A stretch of DNA of 24,000 bases from Christensenellaceae bacterium (GTDB taxonomy: Bacteria; Bacillota; Clostridia; Christensenellales; Borkfalkiaceae). The position numbers and the translations under genes were made by a program. Positions 1 to 14,041 of this stretch are shown in pieces; positions within the stretch are counted from its first letter, which is position 1; each line of letters opens with the position of its first letter. Location of the stretch: assembly GCA_045613025.1 (NCBI GenBank), contig JAZLAE010000013.1, forward strand, positions 38,486 to 62,485. Direction: 5' to 3'. The notes under the pieces were generated by a model. It saw only the letters and a program-made list of their open reading frames with translations. It did not search any database and had not been told where the DNA came from.

Positions 1-1
1 A

Positions 2-1597
2 GATGAAAACGGTAGGCTATCCGCTATCAACTTCAAAAACACCGAAACTTTCAACTTTGGTTTTGATATAGTTGATAAAATTGCCGAAAAATATCCAGAT
101 AAACTTGCAATGCTTCATCTTGATAAAAACAAAGTTGAACGCCGTTTTACCTTTAGGGATATCAAGCGTGCTTCTAACCAAGTGGCTAACTACTTTACTT
201 CGCTTGGCATCAAAAAAGGCGATAAAGTAATGCTTGTACTTAAACGCCATTACGAATTCTGGTTCTGTATGGTTGCCCTTCACAAACTTGGTGCGGTGGC
301 TATCCCTGCAACTAACCAACTTAAACAGCACGATTTTGAATACAGATATAACGCTGCGGGTGTAAAAGCAATCGTTTGTACGGCAGATGGCGATACTTAC
401 ACTTACGCTCAAAGCGCTGCTAAAAAATGCCCTCAAGTAGAAAAACTTTTAATGGTAGGTGGCGCTAAAGACGGTTGGCAAGATTTCAATAAAGAATATC
501 CGCTTTTCAGTGCTCACTTCTACCGCAATGAAGATACTTCTTGTGGTAACGATACTGCGCTTATGTTCTTTACTTCGGGTACAACTGGCAACCCTAAAAT
601 GGCTGCGCACAAACATACTTACGCGCTTGGTCATTTTGTAACCGCTAAGTACTGGCACTGTTGCGAACGCGACGGCTTACACTTAACTATTTCTGATACT
701 GGCTGGGGTAAATCACTTTGGGGTAAACTTTACGGTCAATGGCTTTGCGAAGGTGCGGTATTTGTTTACGACTTTGATAGGTTCGAAGAAAACGACATTT
801 TACCAATGTTTGCAAAATATAACATTACTACTTTCTGCGCTCCACCAACAATGCTCCGTATGCTTATTCGTGGCGACCTTTCTAAGTACGACCTTTCTTC
901 AATCCACCATATGACTACTGCTGGCGAAGCGTTAAACCCTGAAGTATTCAATAAATTTAAAGAAGCAACAGGCCTTGAAATTATGGAAGGTTTTGGCCAA
1001 ACCGAAACAACCCTTGCTATTGCTAACCTTTACGGCACTACACCAAAAATCGGTGCTATGGGTAAGGCAAATCCACAATACGACGTTGACGTAGTTGACC
1101 CAGATGGAAATAGTCTTCCTGCAGGTGAAGTTGGCGAAATCGTTATCCATACGGATAAAGCCGTTCCTTGCGGATTATTTAAAGAATATTATTGTGACGC
1201 TGAAAAAACTACCGATGCTTGGCACGATGGCTTATATCATACAGGCGATACCGCATGGCGCGATGAAGACGGATATTTCTGGTACGTTGGTAGGGTAGAC
1301 GACGTTATCAAGTCAAGTGGTTACCGTATCGGACCTTTCGAAATCGAATCGGTAATAATGGAACTACCTTACGTTTTAGAATGTGGTGTTTCTGCCGTTC
1401 CTGATGAAGTACGTGGCCAAGTAGTTAAAGCAAGCATCGTATTAACTAAAGGCACTGTAGGTTCTGAAGAATTAAAGAAAGAAATTCAACAATACGTTAA
1501 AGAACATACCGCTCCATACAAGTATCCAAGGGTAATCGTATTTAAAGACGAATTGCCAAAGACCATTAGCGGTAAAATCCAAAGAAACAAACTCTAA
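2..1597 (+). CDS. AMP-forming acyl-CoA synthetase, medium-chain (ACSM/MACS-like) family; 5' end cut by the window edge
   Basis: The frame is open from nt 2 (DENGRLSAINFKNTETFNFGFDIVDKIAEKYPDKLAMLHL...). This aligns with the region starting about residue 260 of the 2114..4402 paralog, so the Met at 110 in the ORF track is internal. Adenylate-forming motifs are present: FFTSGTTGNPK, TTAGEAL, GDTAWRDEDGYFWYVGRVDDVIKSSGYRIGPFEIES, PKTISGKIQR. Confidence 0.9.
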   Translation, partial: DENGRLSAINFKNTETFNFGFDIVDKIAEKYPDKLAMLHLDKNKVERRFTFRDIKRASNQVANYFTSLGIKKGDKVMLVLKRHYEFWFCMVALHKLGAVAIPATNQLKQHDFEYRYNAAGVKAIVCTADGDTYTYAQSAAKKCPQVEKLLMVGGAKDGWQDFNKEYPLFSAHFYRNEDTSCGNDTALMFFTSGTTGNPKMAAHKHTYALGHFVTAKYWHCCERDGLHLTISDTGWGKSLWGKLYGQWLCEGAVFVYDFDRFEENDILPMFAKYNITTFCAPPTMLRMLIRGDLSKYDLSSIHHMTTAGEALNPEVFNKFKEATGLEIMEGFGQTETTLAIANLYGTTPKIGAMGKANPQYDVDVVDPDGNSLPAGEVGEIVIHTDKAVPCGLFKEYYCDAEKTTDAWHDGLYHTGDTAWRDEDGYFWYVGRVDDVIKSSGYRIGPFEIESVIMELPYVLECGVSAVPDEVRGQVVKASIVLTKGTVGSEELKKEIQQYVKEHTAPYKYPRVIVFKDELPKTISGKIQRNKL

Positions 1598-1740
1598 ACG
1601 GCGTTATGCTTCGTTTCTGTAAAATTTATCGACCTTGGTGACCACAAAGGTCTACCAAGTCCGCTAAATTTTACGAGCCTTGCCTAACTTGTTTATAGTC
1701 CGTTTCTAACATATTTCTTATAGAAATAACCATTTACGGG
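1598..1740 (+). repeat. Structured intergenic repeat, copy A (long imperfect hairpin plus conserved 3' tail)
   Basis: Begins immediately after the stop codon. Nested stems surround the loop ACAAA: GTAAAATTT (1619-1627)/AAATTTTAC (1666-1674), CTTGGT (1634-1639)/ACCAAG (1654-1659), GACC (1640-1643)/GGTC (1649-1652). The flanks CGTTTCTG and CGAGCCTTGCCTAACTTGTTTATAG recur at 4403-4736 and 9307-9600, and in diverged form at 13920-13995. Confidence 0.75.
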
Positions 1741-1792
1741 TAGAATATTAAGTTTTTACTATATATAACTTTAAAATAAAAGATAAAAACGT

Positions 1793-1821
1793 TTGACACT
1801 TAATTAAAGGTGTGATAAAAT
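1793..1821 (+). promoter_or_regulatory. Sigma-A type promoter with extended -10
   Basis: TTGACA (1793-1798), 17-nt spacer, TGa (1813-1815), TAAAAT (1816-1821). It is correctly placed just upstream of the T-box leader. Confidence 0.7.
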
Positions 1822-1833
1822 ACTATAACAAAG

Positions 1834-2094
1834 ATGTTGATGAAGAGTCGTTCAAATATCGTTTTTTAGAGAGATAACGGTTGGTGCAAGTTATTAAAAG
1901 GGTATTGAATGTTGTAGCTTCTGAATCGGAAGGAAGAAAGCGTTGTCAAGTAGAACCTTCTCGTGATTGCTGCGTTAATGCATACGGGTTGTTAGACCTT
2001 GAGGGGCAGTATGTTACTGCAATTTGAGTGGTACCGCGGGTTTTAGATTTATCTATGCTCGTCTCAAAGTTTTATCTTTGAGACGAGCTTTTTT
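1834..2094 (+). promoter_or_regulatory. T-box leader (tRNA-sensing transcription attenuator); specifier most likely GUA (Val)
   Basis: Elements seen: GA/K-turn motif UGAUGAAG (1838-1845); AG bay AGAGAG (1868-1873); distal hairpin AUAAC-GGUUGGUGCAA-GUUAU (1874-1894). The specifier-side strand UUGUAG (1912-1917) lies directly 5' of CUUC (1918-1921), which pairs with GAAG (1842-1845). The T-box sequence is AAUUUGAGUGGUACCGCGG (2021-2039), followed by an intrinsic terminator. The UGGU bulge predicts an A73 discriminator tRNA. That fits Val, Leu or Ile but not Cys. Confidence 0.85.
2057..2094 (+). terminator. Intrinsic terminator of the T-box 1 expression platform
   Basis: GCTCGTCTCAAAG (2057-2069), loop TTTTAT, CTTTGAGACGAGC (2076-2088), then TTTTTT (2089-2094). 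Confidence 0.85.
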
Positions 2095-2113
2095 GTTTCA
2101 AACGGAGGAAATT

Positions 2114-4402
2114 ATGCAAAATATGATAGGTCTTGATTTAAAAATTCAAGAAATGGCAACAAGAATACGCGAACTTCGCGAAATCGTAGGTCTTTCCACC
2201 ATCGAAATGGCGGAAAAAACTGGCGTTACCGAAGAACAGTATATTCAATGCGAAAACGGTTTATCCGACTTAAACTTCGCTTTCATTTATAGGTGTGCTT
2301 TAGCGTTCAACGTTGACGTTACCGAAATTATCGAAGGTAAAAGCCCTAAACTTAGTTCCTACGTCTTAACAAGAAGCGGTAAAGGTCAAAAAATTGAACA
2401 AGCGCACGGTATGACTTATTATAACTTAGCGTCTACCTTTAGAAATCGTATTGCAGAACCACTTTACGTTGTTAGCGAATACGATGAAAGCGCGCAAAAT
2501 AAAGAAATTGAAGTTACCACTCACACTGGTCAAGAATTTGACTTAGTTGTTGAAGGTGAGTTAAAAATTAAAATCGGTGACCACGTTGAAGTTTTAAAAG
2601 CGGGCGACAGTATTTACTACAACTCTTCAACCCCACACGGTATGATTGCCGTTGGCGGTAAAGACTGTATTTTCTACGCTATCGTATTAAACCCAACTGG
2701 CGAACCTATCCCTGAACTTCAAAAACACCCTGAAAATAAACTTATTAAAGAAGTTGATAAAGACCACGAAAAAAGGGCGTACAGTAAGTTTATCGACACC
2801 GTTGAAGACGAAAACGGTACTCCGCTTTCAATTAACTTTAAAAATCAAGATAAATTTAACTTTGCTTACGATATCTTTGACGAAATCGCTAAAAAGCACC
2901 CAAGCAAACTTGCCCTTTTACATATTTCAAGGGATAAAACCGAACGTCGTTTCTCATTTAGCGATATTAAAAAATATTCTTGTAGGGCTGCTAACTACTT
3001 TAAGTCTTTAGGCATTAAAAAAGGCGATAGAGTTATGCTTGTTCTTGGTAGAGATTATCAATACTGGTACGCTATGCTTGGTTTAAACCGCTTAGGTGCT
3101 ATTGCAATCCCTGCGATGAACCAACTTTTAGCAAAAGACTTTGAATACCGCTTTAATAGTGCGGGCGTATCTGCAATTTTATGTACGGCGCAAGGCGGTT
3201 CTTCATTTCAAGTAGATATTGCAAGCGAAAAATGTCCAGGTCTTAAACATAAAATTATCGTTGGTGGCGAACGCGATGGTTGGAGAAATTTCGACGAAGA
3301 ATGCGAACTTTTCAGCACTCACTTCGAAAGAACTGAAGAAACCGCTGGTGGCGATGATATTATGCTTATGTTCTTTACTTCGGGAACTACAGGCTATCCA
3401 AAAATCGCAATGCACAACTATAAATACGCGCTTGGCCACTTCCACACCGCTAAATACTGGCACGCTGCAAGGCACGATGGTATCCACTTCACTATCAGTG
3501 ATACCGGCTGGGCTAAAGCAATGTGGGGTAAATATTACGGTCAATGGCTTGTTGAAGGGGCTATCTTCGTTTACGACTTTGATAGATTCAATGCAAGTGA
3601 TATTTTACCTATGTTTGCAAAATACAATATCACTACTTTCTGCGCTCCGCCTACAATGCTTCGTATGCTTGTTAAAGAAGATATTTCTCAATACGATTTA
3701 TCTTCAATAAGATATATGACTACCGCTGGTGAAGCACTTAACTTAGAAGTTTACAAACAATTCAAAGAAGCAACCGGTCTTTCTATTATGGAAGGCTTCG
3801 GTCAAACAGAATCAACCCTACTTATCGGCAATATGGTAGGTACTAATACTAAACCTGGTTCAATGGGTAAACCTGTACCTATTTACGATATCCAACTTTT
3901 AGATAGAGAAGGAAACCCTGTACCTAATGGTGAAACGGGCGAAATTTGTATCAATACTCAAAGTGGTAAACCAAACGGTCTTTTCTGCGGATATTATAAC
4001 GACGAAGAAAAAACTAAAGAAGTTTGGTACGATGGCTTCTACCACACTGGCGACCTTGCTTGGCGCGATGAAGACGGCTTCTATTGGTACGTTGGTAGGG
4101 CAGATGACGTTATTAAATCGTCTGGTTACCGTATCGGACCTTTCGAAATCGAATCGGTAATAATGGAACTCCCTTACGTTTTAGAATGTGGCGTTTCCGC
4201 TGCACCTGATGAAGTTCGTGGTCAAGTAGTTAAAGCAAGTATCGTTTTAACTAAAGGTACGGTAGGTACTGAAGAACTCAAAAAGGAAATTCAAGAATAC
4301 GTTAAAAAACGTACCGCCCCTTACAAATATCCACGTGTAGTTGTATTTAAGGACGAATTGCCTAAGACTATAAGCGGTAAAATCCAAAGAAATAAGTTAT
4401 AA
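2114..4402 (+). CDS. Fusion protein: XRE-family HTH + cupin domain + AMP-forming medium-chain acyl-CoA synthetase
   Basis: GGAGG (2104-2108) sits upstream of ATG 2114. The ORF-track start at 2024 runs through the T-box terminator and is rejected. The N-terminus, IRELREIVGLSTIEMAEKTGVTEEQYIQCENG, is a typical HTH_3 segment. Next comes a cupin beta-barrel segment (HTGQEFDLVVEGELKIKIGDHVEVLKAGDSIYYNSSTPHGM). From about residue 260 it continues as a full acyl-CoA synthetase (FFTSGTTGYPK, GDLAWRDEDGFYWYVGRADDVIKSSGYRIGPFEIES, PKTISGKIQR). There is one uninterrupted frame. Confidence 0.85.
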   Translation: MQNMIGLDLKIQEMATRIRELREIVGLSTIEMAEKTGVTEEQYIQCENGLSDLNFAFIYRCALAFNVDVTEIIEGKSPKLSSYVLTRSGKGQKIEQAHGMTYYNLASTFRNRIAEPLYVVSEYDESAQNKEIEVTTHTGQEFDLVVEGELKIKIGDHVEVLKAGDSIYYNSSTPHGMIAVGGKDCIFYAIVLNPTGEPIPELQKHPENKLIKEVDKDHEKRAYSKFIDTVEDENGTPLSINFKNQDKFNFAYDIFDEIAKKHPSKLALLHISRDKTERRFSFSDIKKYSCRAANYFKSLGIKKGDRVMLVLGRDYQYWYAMLGLNRLGAIAIPAMNQLLAKDFEYRFNSAGVSAILCTAQGGSSFQVDIASEKCPGLKHKIIVGGERDGWRNFDEECELFSTHFERTEETAGGDDIMLMFFTSGTTGYPKIAMHNYKYALGHFHTAKYWHAARHDGIHFTISDTGWAKAMWGKYYGQWLVEGAIFVYDFDRFNASDILPMFAKYNITTFCAPPTMLRMLVKEDISQYDLSSIRYMTTAGEALNLEVYKQFKEATGLSIMEGFGQTESTLLIGNMVGTNTKPGSMGKPVPIYDIQLLDREGNPVPNGETGEICINTQSGKPNGLFCGYYNDEEKTKEVWYDGFYHTGDLAWRDEDGFYWYVGRADDVIKSSGYRIGPFEIESVIMELPYVLECGVSAAPDEVRGQVVKASIVLTKGTVGTEELKKEIQEYVKKRTAPYKYPRVVVFKDELPKTISGKIQRNKL

Positions 4403-4530
4403 GCGTCGCAATACTGCGTTTACTGCTTCAAATTTTGACTTTGATGACCAACAAGGTCAATCAAATCCAAAATTTTCGCGAGCCTTGTCTTGCTTGCTTC
4501 TAACTCATTTCTTACATAAACAAATTATAA
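4403..4530 (+). repeat. Structured intergenic repeat, copy B
   Basis: Same layout as copy A: CTGCGTTTACTG, then stems TTTGAT (4440-4445)/ATCAAA (4460-4465) and GACC (4446-4449)/GGTC (4455-4458) around the loop AACAA. The outer stem is AAATTTTG/CAAAATTT, followed by the tail CGAGCCTTG. It ends with ...AAACAAATTATAA, which resembles the 3' end of the synthetase gene. Confidence 0.7.
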
Positions 4531-4655
4531 GCATCGTATTTCTGCGTTTACTGTAAAGTTTTTCGACCACGATAACCAAAAAGGTTTATCGTGTCCGTAA
4601 AACTTTCCGAGCCTTGCCTAACTTGTTTATAGTTCGTTTCTTAATCACACGAAAC
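4531..4655 (+). repeat. Structured intergenic repeat, copy C
   Basis: GCATCGTATTTCTGCGTTTACTG, then the outer stem AAAGTTTT/AAAACTTT, the mid stem CACGAT/ATCGTG and AACC/GGTT around the loop AAAAA, then CGAGCCTTGCCTAACTTGTTTATAGTTCGTTTCT. The stems differ in sequence from copies A and B but remain complementary. Confidence 0.7.
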
Positions 4656-4736
4656 AGGTAGGTCTATCTCAGCCTGTGGTCTACACGAGCCTTTCCTAAC
4701 TTGTTTCTAACTCATTTCTTACAGAAACAAACTAAA
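4656..4736 (+). repeat. Structured intergenic repeat, copy D (partial or degenerate)
   Basis: Keeps the tail CGAGCCTTTCCTAACTTGTTTCTAACTCATTTCTTACAGAAACAAACT, but its hairpin is different and shorter (CAGG...CCTG). The terminal AGAAACAAACT matches the last codons of the 2..1597 gene. Confidence 0.55.
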
Positions 4737-4811: not shown

Positions 4812-4849
4812 TAGATAAGGGGTTATTATATAAAGAAAACAACCACAGT

Positions 4850-4867
4850 TTACAAACTTGTTTGTAA
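4850..4867. promoter_or_regulatory. Perfect 8-bp inverted repeat, candidate operator
   Basis: TTACAAAC-TT-GTTTGTAA, about 40 nt downstream of the predicted -10. The 2-nt spacer is too short for an RNA hairpin loop, so a DNA operator is more likely. Confidence 0.45.
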
Positions 4868-4895
4868 CATCGTTAGTCGCAAGACTACACAGTTT

Positions 4896-4945
4896 TTGCG
4901 CTAGCAAAACACCGTTTGGCGCTAGCCAACTTTGGCAAAGCCAAA
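4896..4945 (+). promoter_or_regulatory. Three tandem short palindromes or hairpins with shared TTGSC/GSCAA arms in the operon leader
   Basis: TTGC-GCTA-GCAA (4896-4907), TTGGC-GCTA-GCCAA (4916-4929), TTTGGC-AAA-GCCAAA (4931-4945). They end 20 nt before the ATG at 4965. Confidence 0.45.
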
Positions 4946-4964
4946 ATATCGTTTAATAATAGTT

Positions 4965-8241: not shown

Positions 8242-9306
8242 ATGGAAATTAAAATCACTAAAACTACAAGTCCTGCGGTTAAACCAGACAGTAGTATTTT
8301 AGGTTTCGGTAAATACTTTACCGACCATATGTTTATAATGGATTATTCGGCTGACAAAGGTTGGCACGATGCAAGAATAGTACCGTTTGGTAGAATTGAT
8401 ATTCACCCAGCATCAACAGTACTTCACTACGGCTCTGAAATCTTTGAAGGTTTAAAAGCATATAGAACAAAAGATGGTAGCGTACAACTTTTCCGTCCGC
8501 TTGAAAACATTAGAAGAATGAACCGCTCAGCAGAACGTATGTGTTTACCTGAAATCCCTGAAGATATGGCACTTGAAGCGTTAACTACCTTTATCAAAAT
8601 GGAACAAGACTGGGTTCCATCTGCACCAGGTACTTCACTTTATATCCGTCCGTTTATGTTCGGTAACGATGAAACTTTAGGTGTTCACGCCGTTAAAAAC
8701 GCTAAATTTGTTATTATAACTTCACCTGTTGGTAGTTATTATAAAGAAGGCATTAACCCTGTTAAAATTATGATTGAATCTGAAGACGTACGTGCCGTTC
8801 GCGGTGGTACGGGCGAAGCAAAATGCGGTGGTAACTACGCTGCAAGTAATAGGGCAGGCGAAAGGGCAGAAAAGAAAGGTTACTCTCAAGTATTATGGCT
8901 TGACGGTGTTGAAAGAAAATACATCGAAGAAGTTGGCGCAATGAACGTTATGTTCAAAATCGCAGGCGAAATCGTTACGCCTAAACTTGCAGGTTCAATT
9001 CTTCCAGGTATTACAAGAAAATCTATCCTTGAACTTTTACAAAAAGAAGGTTATAAGGTTTCTGAAAGACTTATCTCTGTTGATGAACTTGCCGAAGCAA
9101 TGAAAAACGGCACGCTTGAAGAAGCATGGGGTTGCGGTACTGCAGCCGTTGTTTCACCTATCGGTGAACTTTGCTATCAAGACGTTAAATACTCTATCAA
9201 CAACGGTAAAATCGGCGAAGTTACTCAACACTTATACGATACTTTAACAGGTATTCAATGGGGTAATAAGGAAGATGTATTTAATTGGGTTTACCCAATT
9301 AAATAA
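8242..9306 (+). CDS. ilvE: Branched-chain amino acid aminotransferase (fold type IV)
   Basis: About 354 aa, with family-typical segments YGSEIFEGLKAYR, LYIRPFMFG, EAKCGGNYAAS, GITRKSILEL, GTAAVVSPI. AAAGGAG RBS. Confidence 0.85.
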   Translation: MEIKITKTTSPAVKPDSSILGFGKYFTDHMFIMDYSADKGWHDARIVPFGRIDIHPASTVLHYGSEIFEGLKAYRTKDGSVQLFRPLENIRRMNRSAERMCLPEIPEDMALEALTTFIKMEQDWVPSAPGTSLYIRPFMFGNDETLGVHAVKNAKFVIITSPVGSYYKEGINPVKIMIESEDVRAVRGGTGEAKCGGNYAASNRAGERAEKKGYSQVLWLDGVERKYIEEVGAMNVMFKIAGEIVTPKLAGSILPGITRKSILELLQKEGYKVSERLISVDELAEAMKNGTLEEAWGCGTAAVVSPIGELCYQDVKYSINNGKIGEVTQHLYDTLTGIQWGNKEDVFNWVYPIK

Positions 9307-9440
9307 GCCGTTATTTGCTGCGTCTATCTGCGTTTCTGCAAAGTGGTTTTGATTTCAATGACCAACAAGGTCTATTTCATCCAAAACCATTTGCGAGCCT
9401 TGATATACTTGCAACTAACGCCTTATTACGTACTTAATTT
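9307..9440 (+). repeat. Structured intergenic repeat, copy E
   Basis: Starts right after the ilvE stop: CTGCGTTTCTG, outer stem GCAAA(G)TGGTTTT (9338-9350)/AAAACCATTTGC (9383-9394), GACC-AACAA-GGTC core, then CGAGCCTTG... The mid stem is partly decayed. Confidence 0.65.
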
Positions 9441-9452
9441 AACTTTTAAAAA

Positions 9453-9479
9453 GGCAGGTTTACTTAACCTGTCTTTTTT
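9453..9479 (+). terminator. Intrinsic terminator
   Basis: GGCAGGTT-TACTT-AACCTGTC followed by TTTTTT. Confidence 0.8.
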
Positions 9480-9521
9480 CTACACTTTTAAATCCGCACA
9501 ATATTAAACTTAATAAAATTT

Positions 9522-9552
9522 AAGGCAGGTTGTTTTAAGACCTGCCTTTTTC
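9522..9552 (+). terminator. Intrinsic terminator (second; related sequence)
   Basis: AAGGCAGGT-TGTTTTAAG-ACCTGCCTT followed by TTTTT. Confidence 0.8.
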
Positions 9553-9554
9553 TT

Positions 9555-9600
9555 GAGCCTTGCCTAACTTGTAACTAACGCCTTATTACGTAAATTTAAT
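9555..9600 (+). repeat. Structured-repeat tail fragment, copy F
   Basis: GAGCCTTGCCTAACTTGTAACTAACGCCTTATTACGTA duplicates 9395-9432. It has only the tail and no hairpin. Confidence 0.6.
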
Positions 9601-9713: not shown

Positions 9714-9726
9714 ACTTAAAAATAAA

Positions 9727-9989
9727 CGCGATGAAGCGAAATAGTAAGTAAATTTTCTTGCTTTTAGAGAGATGCTGGTTGGTGCAAGGCGTTAGAAGAA
9801 TTTTACCGAACTCGTCGCAGAGCGGTTGCCGTGAAAGGTTAGTAGTGGCAAACGGGAACTCCCGTAAAAGAGTTAGGTGTGTTTGCACCAAAGTGCGCTT
9901 TCTTAAGCGAATAAGAGTGGTACCGCGGAAATAGTTTATCCTAAACGTTTTCGTCTCTTTAAGAAGTAAGGAGACAAAAGCGTTTTTTT
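9727..9989 (+). promoter_or_regulatory. T-box leader, specifier CUC (Leu)
   Basis: GA motif GCGAUGAAGCGAA (9728-9740); AG bay AGAGAG (9766-9771); distal loop GGUUGGUGCAA (9777-9787). The specifier loop 3' side is GAA-CUC-G (9808-9814), directly 5' of UCGC (9815-9818), which pairs with GCGA (9736-9739). The T-box sequence is AAUAAGAGUGGUACCGCGG (9911-9929), followed by a terminator. The UGGU bulge is compatible with A73 of tRNA-Leu. Confidence 0.88.
9946..9989 (+). terminator. Intrinsic terminator of the T-box 2 expression platform
   Basis: CGTTTTCGTCTC (9946-9957) pairs with GAGACAAAAGCG (9971-9982), followed by TTTTTTT (9983-9989). CGGAAA (9925-9930) can pair with TTTTCG (9948-9953) as the antiterminator. 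Confidence 0.8.
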
Positions 9990-13873: not shown

Positions 13874-13881
13874 AGGTTAAA

Positions 13882-14041
13882 GGCTCTGTCACAATAAACG
13901 GTTAATAAATAGCAAATGAAATACTGCGTAATACGTTGTTAAAGCCCTTGAAAAGATGTATACTCTTATCTACGGGCTTTGCCTAGTCTTACTTGCATTT
14001 GCTTTGCTATTTTAAAATCAACCTAATATTGTGACATCGCC
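13882..14041. repeat. Nested long palindrome enclosing a diverged copy (G) of the intergenic repeat
   Basis: Outer arms GGCTCTGTCACAATA (13882-13896)/TATTGTGACATCGCC (14027-14041), with a perfect 10-bp core. Middle arms AGCAAATG (13911-13918)/CATTTGCT (13996-14003). Inner arms AAAGCCC (13941-13947)/GGGCTTT (13974-13980). AATACTGCGT and GGGCTTTGCCTAGTCTTACTTG resemble copy B/C flanks. Confidence 0.65.

Follow-up and report, generated by a model that had tools for sequence, protein, structure and literature searches.

Hairpin elements behind the genes of the window

We have analyzed a 24,000-nt stretch of DNA, referred to here as the window, that corresponds to positions 38486 to 62485 of contig C13 in a 1.85-Mb metagenome-assembled genome (MAG) of a Christensenellaceae bacterium, designated G000. 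Two acyl-CoA synthetase genes, ilvE and a ligase-fusion gene lie in this window, and structured repeat elements stand behind their stop codons, which end at 1597, 4402, 9306 and 13873, respectively. Genes were taken from our own simple calls of open reading frames (ORFs), and the names of genes upstream of the elements are our readings of their translations. The elements belong to a superfamily of genus-restricted, non-coding, hairpin-forming dispersed repeats of uncultured gut Christensenellaceae. Our best reading is that the family is a polar relative of REP (repetitive extragenic palindromic) and MITE (miniature inverted-repeat transposable element) types of repeats, and not a control element for genes of branched-chain amino acid (BCAA) metabolism. 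The units in the window, which share one orientation as an earlier sequence-only reading had observed, are collected in Table 1.

Table 1. Repeat units of families F1 and F2 in the window; z-scores are relative to dinucleotide shuffles
Unit	Positions	Strand	Location	Basis	Fold (segment)
F1 copy A	1575..1720	+	behind acyl-CoA synthetase 1	covariance model, 134.5 bits	-39.5 kcal/mol, z = -4.9 (1598-1740)
F1 copy B	4380..4525	+	behind acyl-CoA synthetase 2, TAA 4400-4402	covariance model, 138 bits	-28.4 kcal/mol, z = -4.2 (4403-4530)
F1 copy C	4508..4654	+	tandem follower of B	covariance model match C13:42993-43139	-23.9 kcal/mol, z = -1.9 (4531-4655)
F1 partial unit D	4652..4736	+		nhmmer match, model positions 49-110, C13:43137-43198	no better than shuffles, z = -0.4 (4656-4736)
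F1 copy E	9294..9439	+	behind ilvE, stop 9304-9306	covariance model, 124.2 bits	-32.3 kcal/mol, z = -3.6 (9307-9440)
Trailing mosaic	9447..9600	+		sequence, terminator scan, nhmmer partial match C13:48020-48067	
F2 copy	13881..14041	+	between ligase-fusion gene stop (13873) and next gene start (14056)	nhmmer, 137 bits	

The F1 unit is one long irregular hairpin of ~145 nt, because its 5' and 3' boxes pair with each other and its outer stem closes over the stop codon. The sequence-only reading had placed the copies correctly, with their boxes, tiered hairpin, GACC-(A-rich loop)-GGTC tip and one-nucleotide bulge on the 3' side, and the stem variants that it quoted are indeed complementary. However, it gave the copies shorter extents than those of the covariance model (Table 1), and it treated the boxes as unpaired, which proved wrong: the boxes pair and covary, and the outer stem joins the stop-codon region to sequence on the 3' side of the 3' box. 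The 5' arm of the outermost helix, P1, holds the stop codon of the gene. Next inward is the P2 helix (AAGCG/TGCTT or AAACG/TGTTT), and then the 7-bp P3 helix, at the center of which a T.C (pyrimidine-pyrimidine) mismatch is conserved. P3 is followed by an internal loop, likewise conserved (5' side GCGTT..., 3' side GAGCCTTG). The innermost part is a variable stem, built in tiers and carrying a single bulged base, that is capped by the invariant tip ACC-loop-GGT. In copy A, P1 (~1583-1595 with 1695-1707) takes in the gene's last codons, P2 pairs 1596-1600 (ACG preceded by the AA of the stop codon, TAA at 1595-1597) with 1690-1694, and P3 pairs GTTATGC at 1603-1609 with GCCTAAC at 1682-1688; the tiered hairpin occupies 1620-1674, with GACC at 1640-1643, the loop at 1644-1648 and GGTC at 1649-1652.

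We aligned 27 F1 copies, and derived from them an RNAalifold consensus, in which double changes occur at 24 of 34 pairs, and the covariance model. Pairing was then examined in 70 copies (67 distinct) from ~14 species, with 500 column shuffles and slid partners as controls. Standard pairs made up 92.3% of the cells, as compared with 75.6% in the column shuffles, none of which reached the observed value, and 30-41% with slid partners; both-sided changes were seen at 27 of the 34 pairs and in 365 cells among the distinct copies, although the copies are akin to one another and these and our other counts overstate independence. Base pairing in F1 is maintained far beyond chance. P3 provides an example, with partners GTTATGC/GCCTAAC, GCAATAC/GTCTTGC, GTTATAC/GTCTAAC and GTTGGGC/GCCCAAC in F1 and GTAATAC/GTCTTAC in F2. 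These values are consistent with the selection on structure that had been suggested, but template repair or gene conversion could, even without selection, yield part of the compensation, as discussed below. Unpaired features are conserved as well, and ~90 copies retain the internal loop, the bulged nucleotide and the mismatch at the center of P3.

A match to a known non-coding RNA, a possible objection to the element being new, was not found in Rfam at gathering or permissive thresholds, with E-values of up to 10. The sole Rfam matches in the window were two T-box leaders (RF00230) at 1828-2069 and 9722-9961 (105.7 and 134.9 bits, respectively), both of which lie downstream of F1 copies or arrays. 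Promoter and terminator scans of the element gave nothing consistent, and an element-borne promoter or terminator was rejected on these grounds; only one subfamily has a conserved -10-like TAATAAT, which reads on the antisense strand of the 3' tail. The F1 hairpins of the window are followed by CGAGCCTTG and lack the U-tract of an intrinsic terminator. This absence, noted earlier for the window, does not extend to the whole family, since T-runs give a terminator-like look to a minority subgroup elsewhere and are present in the trailing units at 9447-9548. No intrinsic terminator was found between copy A and a promoter-like site at 1793-1821.

Partial and rearranged units accompany the full copies. 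In copy B, the last codons of the gene itself (agaaataagtta) serve as the 5' arm of the outer stem, opposite the 3' arm taactcatttct. Copy C starts with a decayed copy of this gene end (ataaacaaattataa), and unit D is a 3' half only, with half of the hairpin, the 3' box, the 3' arm and a gene-end ghost. In the mosaic behind copy E, hairpins that resemble terminators and have T-runs occur at about 9447-9480 and 9522-9548, and pieces of the family 3' end come after each of the two; a 3' box, GAGCCTTGCCTAACTTG, begins at 9554. A terminator-like hairpin followed by the family 3' end, as at 9522-9600, defines a third kind of unit in addition to F1 and F2. In arrays at C29:234229-234560, C44:51118-51402 and C42:35185-35460, one full F1 is followed by two or three units of ~88 nt, each of which runs from a terminator-like hairpin and its T-run through the 3' box to a 3' arm and tail, and these look like internal-deletion derivatives that have turned into real terminator shapes. 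The 2 synthetase genes (window 1-4402) are themselves a tandem duplication, with a spacing of 2805 nt and 72-84% identity; since each ends in IQRNKL* and is then followed by F1, gene and element were probably duplicated together.

The segment at 13920-13995 had been taken for a diverged copy of the same element. It is related, but we found it to be the core of a separate 160-nt nested palindrome, F2, a sister family that shares with F1 the P3 helix (GTAATAC/GTCTTAC) and the 3' box. The ends of F2 are terminal inverted repeats of the form (T)AAGGCTCTGTCACAA ... TTGTGACATCGCCTT(A), as in MITEs, and their counterpart in F1 is the outer stem P1. A small ORF on the F2 antisense strand was rejected, its frame being inconsistent between copies.

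Distribution, direction and turnover of the copies

A 3'-box census of the whole assembly, followed by iterated nhmmer searches, located 45 F1 loci in G000, 28 of them full length and 17 partial, and 37 F2 loci (nhmmer). We surveyed 38 genomes of the genus with the F1 covariance model and found F1 in 37, with per-genome copy numbers from 0 to at least 76 (76-82 candidates were scored per genome, so that the top counts are lower bounds); a survey of 16 other families of the order with the same model yielded one weak match. The family totals >1000 copies across this abundant, uncultured gut genus, and our literature search returned no description of such repeats in Christensenellaceae. The genes upstream of copies in G000 include pyrH, queA, ftsZ, tpiA, metK, the ornithine carbamoyltransferase gene, engB, dnaK, rplQ, mnmA, pflB, the RNase R gene and dut, which are functionally unrelated. 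The position directly after stop codons, first recognized at BCAA-module genes, holds, but the link to BCAA is incidental, as the element recurs behind unrelated genes on many contigs. A BCAA-specific regulator was rejected on the strength of this census and gene list.

The copies are strongly directional. In G000, 27 of 28 full F1 copies and 25 of 27 F2 copies (52/55, p = 1.5e-12) are co-oriented with the upstream gene, as are 63 of 66 copies in 441 kb from 13 other species. Tandem spacers of G000 hold 32 sense and 2 antisense copies; divergent spacers, with 21% of the spacer bases, hold 1 of 55. Five copies that are on the lagging strand by local GC skew are still co-oriented with the upstream gene, indicating that direction tracks the gene and not replication. 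Arrays are always same-direction tandems, some with partial units, and inverted doublets are absent. The stop codon lies at a fixed offset of -4, +6 or +11/12 from the model start, each of which coincides with one of the three TAAs in the consensus 5' arm (TAATTTAAAAGCGTATAAGCG), and all 22 F1-bearing genes in G000 end in TAA, as compared with 79% of genes genome-wide. Because the copies lie between the stop codon and a terminator or the next cistron, they are co-transcribed with the gene.

Presence of the copies varies between related genomes, as is usual for MITEs. We compared flanks of 61 copies from relatives with G000 by BLAST, and examined 13 pairs of filled and empty sites. The syntenic region of G018 (76-82% DNA identity) has no F1 after either synthetase gene and no F2, and at its empty sites the TAA leads straight into the next promoter or start codon. 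In G003, both synthetase-end copies are present, a plain terminator follows ilvE, and F2 is missing; the F2 site is also empty in two further Christensenellaceae MAGs, L015 and L016. The ilvE site is filled in G000, G018, G019, G012, G022, G024 and G014, though not in G003. These comparisons show gain and loss of the copies, at the level of DNA, from one species to another. Two kinds of placement were observed. In one, the element begins right after the native TAA, for example ...aacTAA followed by tttaacccgtta... at a filled site versus ...aacTAAtATG... at the empty one; in the other, it begins right after a terminator T-run (...gtgttttttA followed by ATTCGTTA...). Insertion into the loop of a pre-existing terminator, which would make the outer stem a split terminator, was considered and rejected, since in G018, where sites A and B are empty, neither site has a terminator. 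The flanks of copies contain no consistent direct repeat; they are themselves palindromic (AA|GGC...GCC|TT), and the species compared are ~20% diverged. Neither a search of metagenome contigs nor an exact-protein lookup found a same-species contig that could supply exact junctions.

F2 has a narrower range than F1, with many matches in G003 and one partial match in the 441 kb from 13 other species, and looks like a lineage-specific branch that arose recently within the superfamily. At three gene ends (C11:53922-54081, C16:818-978 and C29:86391-86536, including those of rplQ and mnmA), F2 in G000 stands where another species has F1, and G017 and G012 have an F1 copy at the end of the ligase-fusion gene, where G000 has F2. 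From the swapping of F2 and F1 at the same gene ends, it is evident that the two families occupy the same sites.

The sequence-only reading had raised a REP/MITE-like repeat as one of two alternatives, and this fits the genome-wide spread, the range of copy numbers in the genus and the filled and empty orthologous sites. The best explanation that we can offer, with a probability of roughly 0.6, is that the family is a genus-specific, polar, stop-codon-anchored hairpin repeat that has spread and been reshuffled as DNA and is carried in mRNA 3' ends.

Exchange of modules and strand asymmetry

The outer stem of F1 can be compared between species at the end of the second synthetase gene, where G003 has ...aagttaTAA, ttttaaaagcgtaTAA and the core ... 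tacacttttaaaa, and G000 has ...aagttaTAA and the core ... taactcatttct. In G000, relative to G003, the separate 5' arm has been lost, and a new 12-nt 3' arm complements the final four codons of the gene. In six species, the native end IQRNKL* has taactcRtttct as its pairing partner, and in one G014 paralogue the change of an Arg codon from AGA to CGT is matched by a change from tttct to ttacg in the 3' arm. Other copies carry an element-borne 5' arm into which the reading frame runs, so that a protein ends in ...CRKIKPL* where the empty ortholog ends in ...CRKIK*. At the ilvE and synthetase sites of seven to eleven genomes, orthologous copies differ greatly in P1, P3 and the hairpin, yet each folds. 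Also, two hairpin types are joined in copy C29:234248, a chimera with mismatched hairpin halves and a breakpoint in the conserved tip. The different helices at orthologous sites, taken together with this chimera, indicate that modules are exchanged between copies and that arms can be replaced as blocks.

These observations lend themselves to an explanation in which compensation is largely mechanical, being the product of intrastrand template switching (quasipalindrome correction) and conversion between copies, with no function required of the fold. The change of whole arms at once at site B between G003 and G000, the entirely different helices of orthologous sites whose flanking genes are ~80% identical, the single chimera broken in its conserved tip, and the 'ghost' gene-end copies in which tandem units end would all follow from such a process. 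It does not, however, predict the unpaired loop, bulge and central P3 mismatch that are conserved in ~90 copies, nor the strand-specific wobble bias described below, and it leaves direction and stop-codon position unexplained. We regard mechanical compensation as the most serious of the competing explanations, possible but doubtful as an account of most of the pairing.

The antisense strand of the elements folds better than the sense strand, by 4.6 kcal/mol for F1 and 8.7 kcal/mol for F2, in 47 of 50 copies. Most of this advantage comes from two conserved mismatches that are C.U on the sense strand and A.G on the antisense strand; because these two dominate the energy gap, we replaced the fold-energy test by counts of wobble pairs. 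Transition mismatches in F2 helices, read on the sense strand, comprise 40 A.C and 3 G.U, and on the + strand we infer 16 changes each of the kinds G>A and U>C, as compared with one each of C>U and A>G, a difference seen in both arms, where the two kinds had equal opportunity. In the F1 outer stem P1, 35 A.C mismatches were counted on the sense strand as compared with 7 G.U. The outer helices keep their wobble pairs almost wholly on the antisense strand. This is the opposite of what is predicted for a selected sense-RNA fold, against which it argues, and by our own reasoning it also opposes the C>T bias to be expected from that strand's positive GC skew. We infer that it is the antisense DNA strand which has to fold, or which is exposed.

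The other alternative offered in the sequence-only reading was an RNA element of the 3' untranslated region (UTR). In the form in which we considered it, a sense-strand RNA in the 3' UTR or intercistronic region, acting in cis on mRNA 3'-end stability, RNase III-type processing or slowed ribosome release, would be selected by the host and would have been recruited to many genes. The outer-helix transition mismatches on the sense strand (A.C 35-40 versus G.U 3-7) conflict with this, as do the span of 0 to at least 76 copies among congeners behind unrelated genes, the persistence of partial units and of a non-folding chimera, and the orthologous genes in sister species that do without the element. 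On the other hand, the inner core, which has no such asymmetry and contains two conserved sense-strand G.U pairs, leaves room for an RNA function, and several further features are those expected of one: copies strictly follow the direction of transcription, even behind lagging-strand genes; by their position between stop codon and terminator they must be transcribed; the same gene ends are occupied across the genus, even in low-copy genomes; and the outer stem tracks synonymous codon changes, as with Arg AGA to CGT (tttct to ttacg) in G014. According to work cited in PMC12306157, REPs reportedly reduce translation, through ribosome stalling, when the stop codon is <16 nt away. On this evidence, a host-selected RNA seems to us an unlikely explanation of the family.

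Relation to known elements and the preferred reading

The sequence-only reading had suggested a transposase of the RAYT/IS200-IS605 (Y1) type as a trans-acting partner, and this suggestion failed. Y1 transposases (PF01797) gave no match in G000, a MAG of 94% completeness. Within the genus, 9 of 38 genomes have a Y1 gene, with no relation to copy number, and PF01797 is without a match in most high-copy genomes (G003, G006, G013, G004, G007, G009, G014 and G024). TnpB (PF07282), IS110 transposase and reverse transcriptase are likewise absent from G000; reverse transcriptase is found in 8 of the 38 genomes, again unrelated to copy number. The best match to integron integrase (TIGR02249) in G000 scored 39.7 bits against a cut-off of 265, and generic tyrosine recombinases only were present. 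RAYT, IS200/IS605, TnpB, IS110, reverse transcriptase and integron integrase were all rejected as the mobilizer for their absence from G000; a search for IS91 Y2 transposase drew no match in any control genome. No longer element or parent insertion sequence with F2 ends was found in G000, where the F2 end motif is confined to F2 copies; such absence from a 94%-complete MAG is not proof.

The family works like REP and MITE-like repeats but fails the defining tests of REP/REPIN, of IS200/IS605 derivatives and of integron attC sites. With the REP/BIME repeats of enterobacteria and pseudomonads, some of which are tagged with GTAG or CGTC, it shares dispersed palindromes downstream of genes, often no more than 15 nt from the stop codon, in tandem and convergent spacers, and mosaic clusters. 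REPs are found mostly downstream of genes in such spacers, and those of the CGTC type have no transposase associated with them (PMC3733652). A classical REP/REPIN, or a palindrome derived from IS200/IS605, moved by a Y1 HUH transposase (RAYT or TnpA), would account for the gene-downstream position, the bulged hairpin with its conserved flanking single-stranded motifs, and the CGTC in the 5' box of many, but only some, copies, where it adjoins paired positions. Yet a REP/REPIN is a short (20-40 nt), GC-rich palindrome with an unpaired GTAG/CGTC tag, a RAYT gene and inverted doublets, whereas our units are AT-rich and 145-160 nt in length, four to five times longer than REPs, have several helices with conserved internal loops, stand in one direction, in same-direction tandems and never in inverted doublets, are unaccompanied by RAYT, and are limited to one Bacillota genus. 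An IS200/IS605 derivative would be tied to TnpA/TnpB and to the replication strand, and here PF01797 and PF07282 are absent from G000 and direction follows the gene. An origin of this kind is therefore very improbable.

ERIC/IRU of enterobacteria, Correia/NEMIS of Neisseria, RUP of pneumococcus and bcr1 of the Bacillus cereus group resemble the family in size, in the long imperfect hairpin, in co-transcription with neighbors and in variable presence between relatives; these MITE-like hairpins are 100-160 bp in length and are co-transcribed, and bcr1, too, shows compensatory changes (PMC3184786). Of the attributes of a MITE, our elements have the terminal inverted repeats and the variable presence, but no parent insertion sequence was found in G000 and no consistent target duplication, including the TA or 5-bp direct end repeats of the elements just named. 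Also, 94-95% of the copies face one way, with the 5' end abutting the stop codon, whereas ERIC is found in both directions, and we know of no strict direction for Correia/NEMIS, RUP or bcr1. BOX of Streptococcus pneumoniae (boxA-(boxB)n-boxC) has interchangeable, repeated middle modules between conserved ends and is non-coding, without a transposase of its own. Its likeness to our family lies in the modular build; to our knowledge, BOX has neither stop-codon anchoring nor a strict direction rule.

Integron attC sites, the bottom strand of which folds better, are also one-directional structured sites right after stop codons, recognized by their fold, with a paired 7-bp box, an unpaired spacer, an extrahelical base and a variable tip. 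The idea that the family consists of such sites, or of a regulatory element specific to BCAA-salvage operons, is refuted for practical purposes, in spite of the R-box-like 7-bp helix, the fit of GTCTAAC to RYYYAAC, the preference of the outer helices for the bottom-strand fold and the four window copies behind BCAA-related genes: the order of boxes is reversed (5' GTTATAC ... GTCTAAC 3', with GTT... first and ...AAC last, as compared with RYYYAAC first and GTTRRRY last in attC), the helix varies freely (GCAATAC/GTCTTGC, with GCAA/TTGC, and GTTGGGC/GCCCAAC), there is no integron integrase above the cut-off and no cassette array, the flanking genes are core genes that exist without the element in relatives, and the host genes genome-wide are unrelated to BCAA metabolism.

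The reading that we prefer, that of a polar hairpin repeat spread as DNA, would work as follows. The family would multiply as a non-autonomous element, the folded single strand of which serves as the substrate of a trans-acting enzyme; the folded strand may be the antisense (bottom) strand, as in attC, and the wobble asymmetry of the outer helices points in this direction. Pairing could be kept by three routes, namely selection on propagating copies, frequent conversion between copies and template-switch repair, the last of which might extend the outer stem into neighboring codons. As a side effect, they are likely to influence the stability or processing of 3' ends or the release of ribosomes, in the manner of REPs located within 15 nt of a stop codon.

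Several observations weigh against this reading. No mobilizing enzyme was found in the 94%-complete G000, and Y1 transposase and reverse transcriptase do not track copy number in the genus. The F1 inner helices show no strand asymmetry (25 versus 28) and hold the two conserved sense-strand G.U pairs. With species ~20% diverged in DNA, no target-site duplication or exact insertion junction can be defined. The copies are old, with a mean column identity of 72%, and no recent burst is visible. Finally, low-copy genomes (1-5 copies) keep copies at the same gene ends: ilvE in G018, G019, G012 and G022; queA in G015, G047, G017, G010 and G012; the ligase-fusion gene in G017 and G012; and the site that matches C29:148000 in G047 and G052. 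The persistence of the ilvE, queA and ligase-fusion sites could reflect a host function; they are either old retained copies or preferred targets.

The preferred reading can be taken a step further, in a form that we put forward quite tentatively and hold to be improbable as a whole. In this form, the family would be a new polar mobile element that uses the folded antisense strand as substrate, homes to the position right after a stop codon or a terminator T-run, and is moved by an enzyme outside the Y1, TnpB, IS110, IntI and reverse transcriptase groups; host selection would weaken the same helix in the sense mRNA, and this conflict would explain why G.T pairs are confined to the antisense strand.

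Three features place the family outside the standard picture of REPs and MITEs: near-absolute co-orientation, anchoring to the stop codon, with the gene's last codons sometimes forming one arm, and the strand-specific wobble bias. If these reflect the mechanism of insertion, a new enzyme that reads folded single-stranded DNA is to be discovered; if they reflect RNA function, mRNA 3' ends are shaped in this way on a wide scale in Clostridia. We consider two features to be the most worth pursuing, namely the bias of wobble pairs toward the antisense strand and the pairing that involves coding sequence. Members of the family can be taken for operon-specific riboswitch-like RNAs, as those of the window were, and cataloguing them averts repeated false leads; the copies can also serve as strain and species markers.

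A further repeat of ~130 nt (aaaacaaccacagtttacaaacttgtttgtaacatcgttagtc.caagactacacagtttttg...cgtttggcgctagccaactt) was observed at 4830-4960 of the window, after the F1 array, and again at C47:6600-6730 of G000, after the F1 copy behind the ornithine carbamoyltransferase gene. Its presence beside F1 at both loci shows that larger composite blocks, comprising F1 and this repeat, have been copied between loci.

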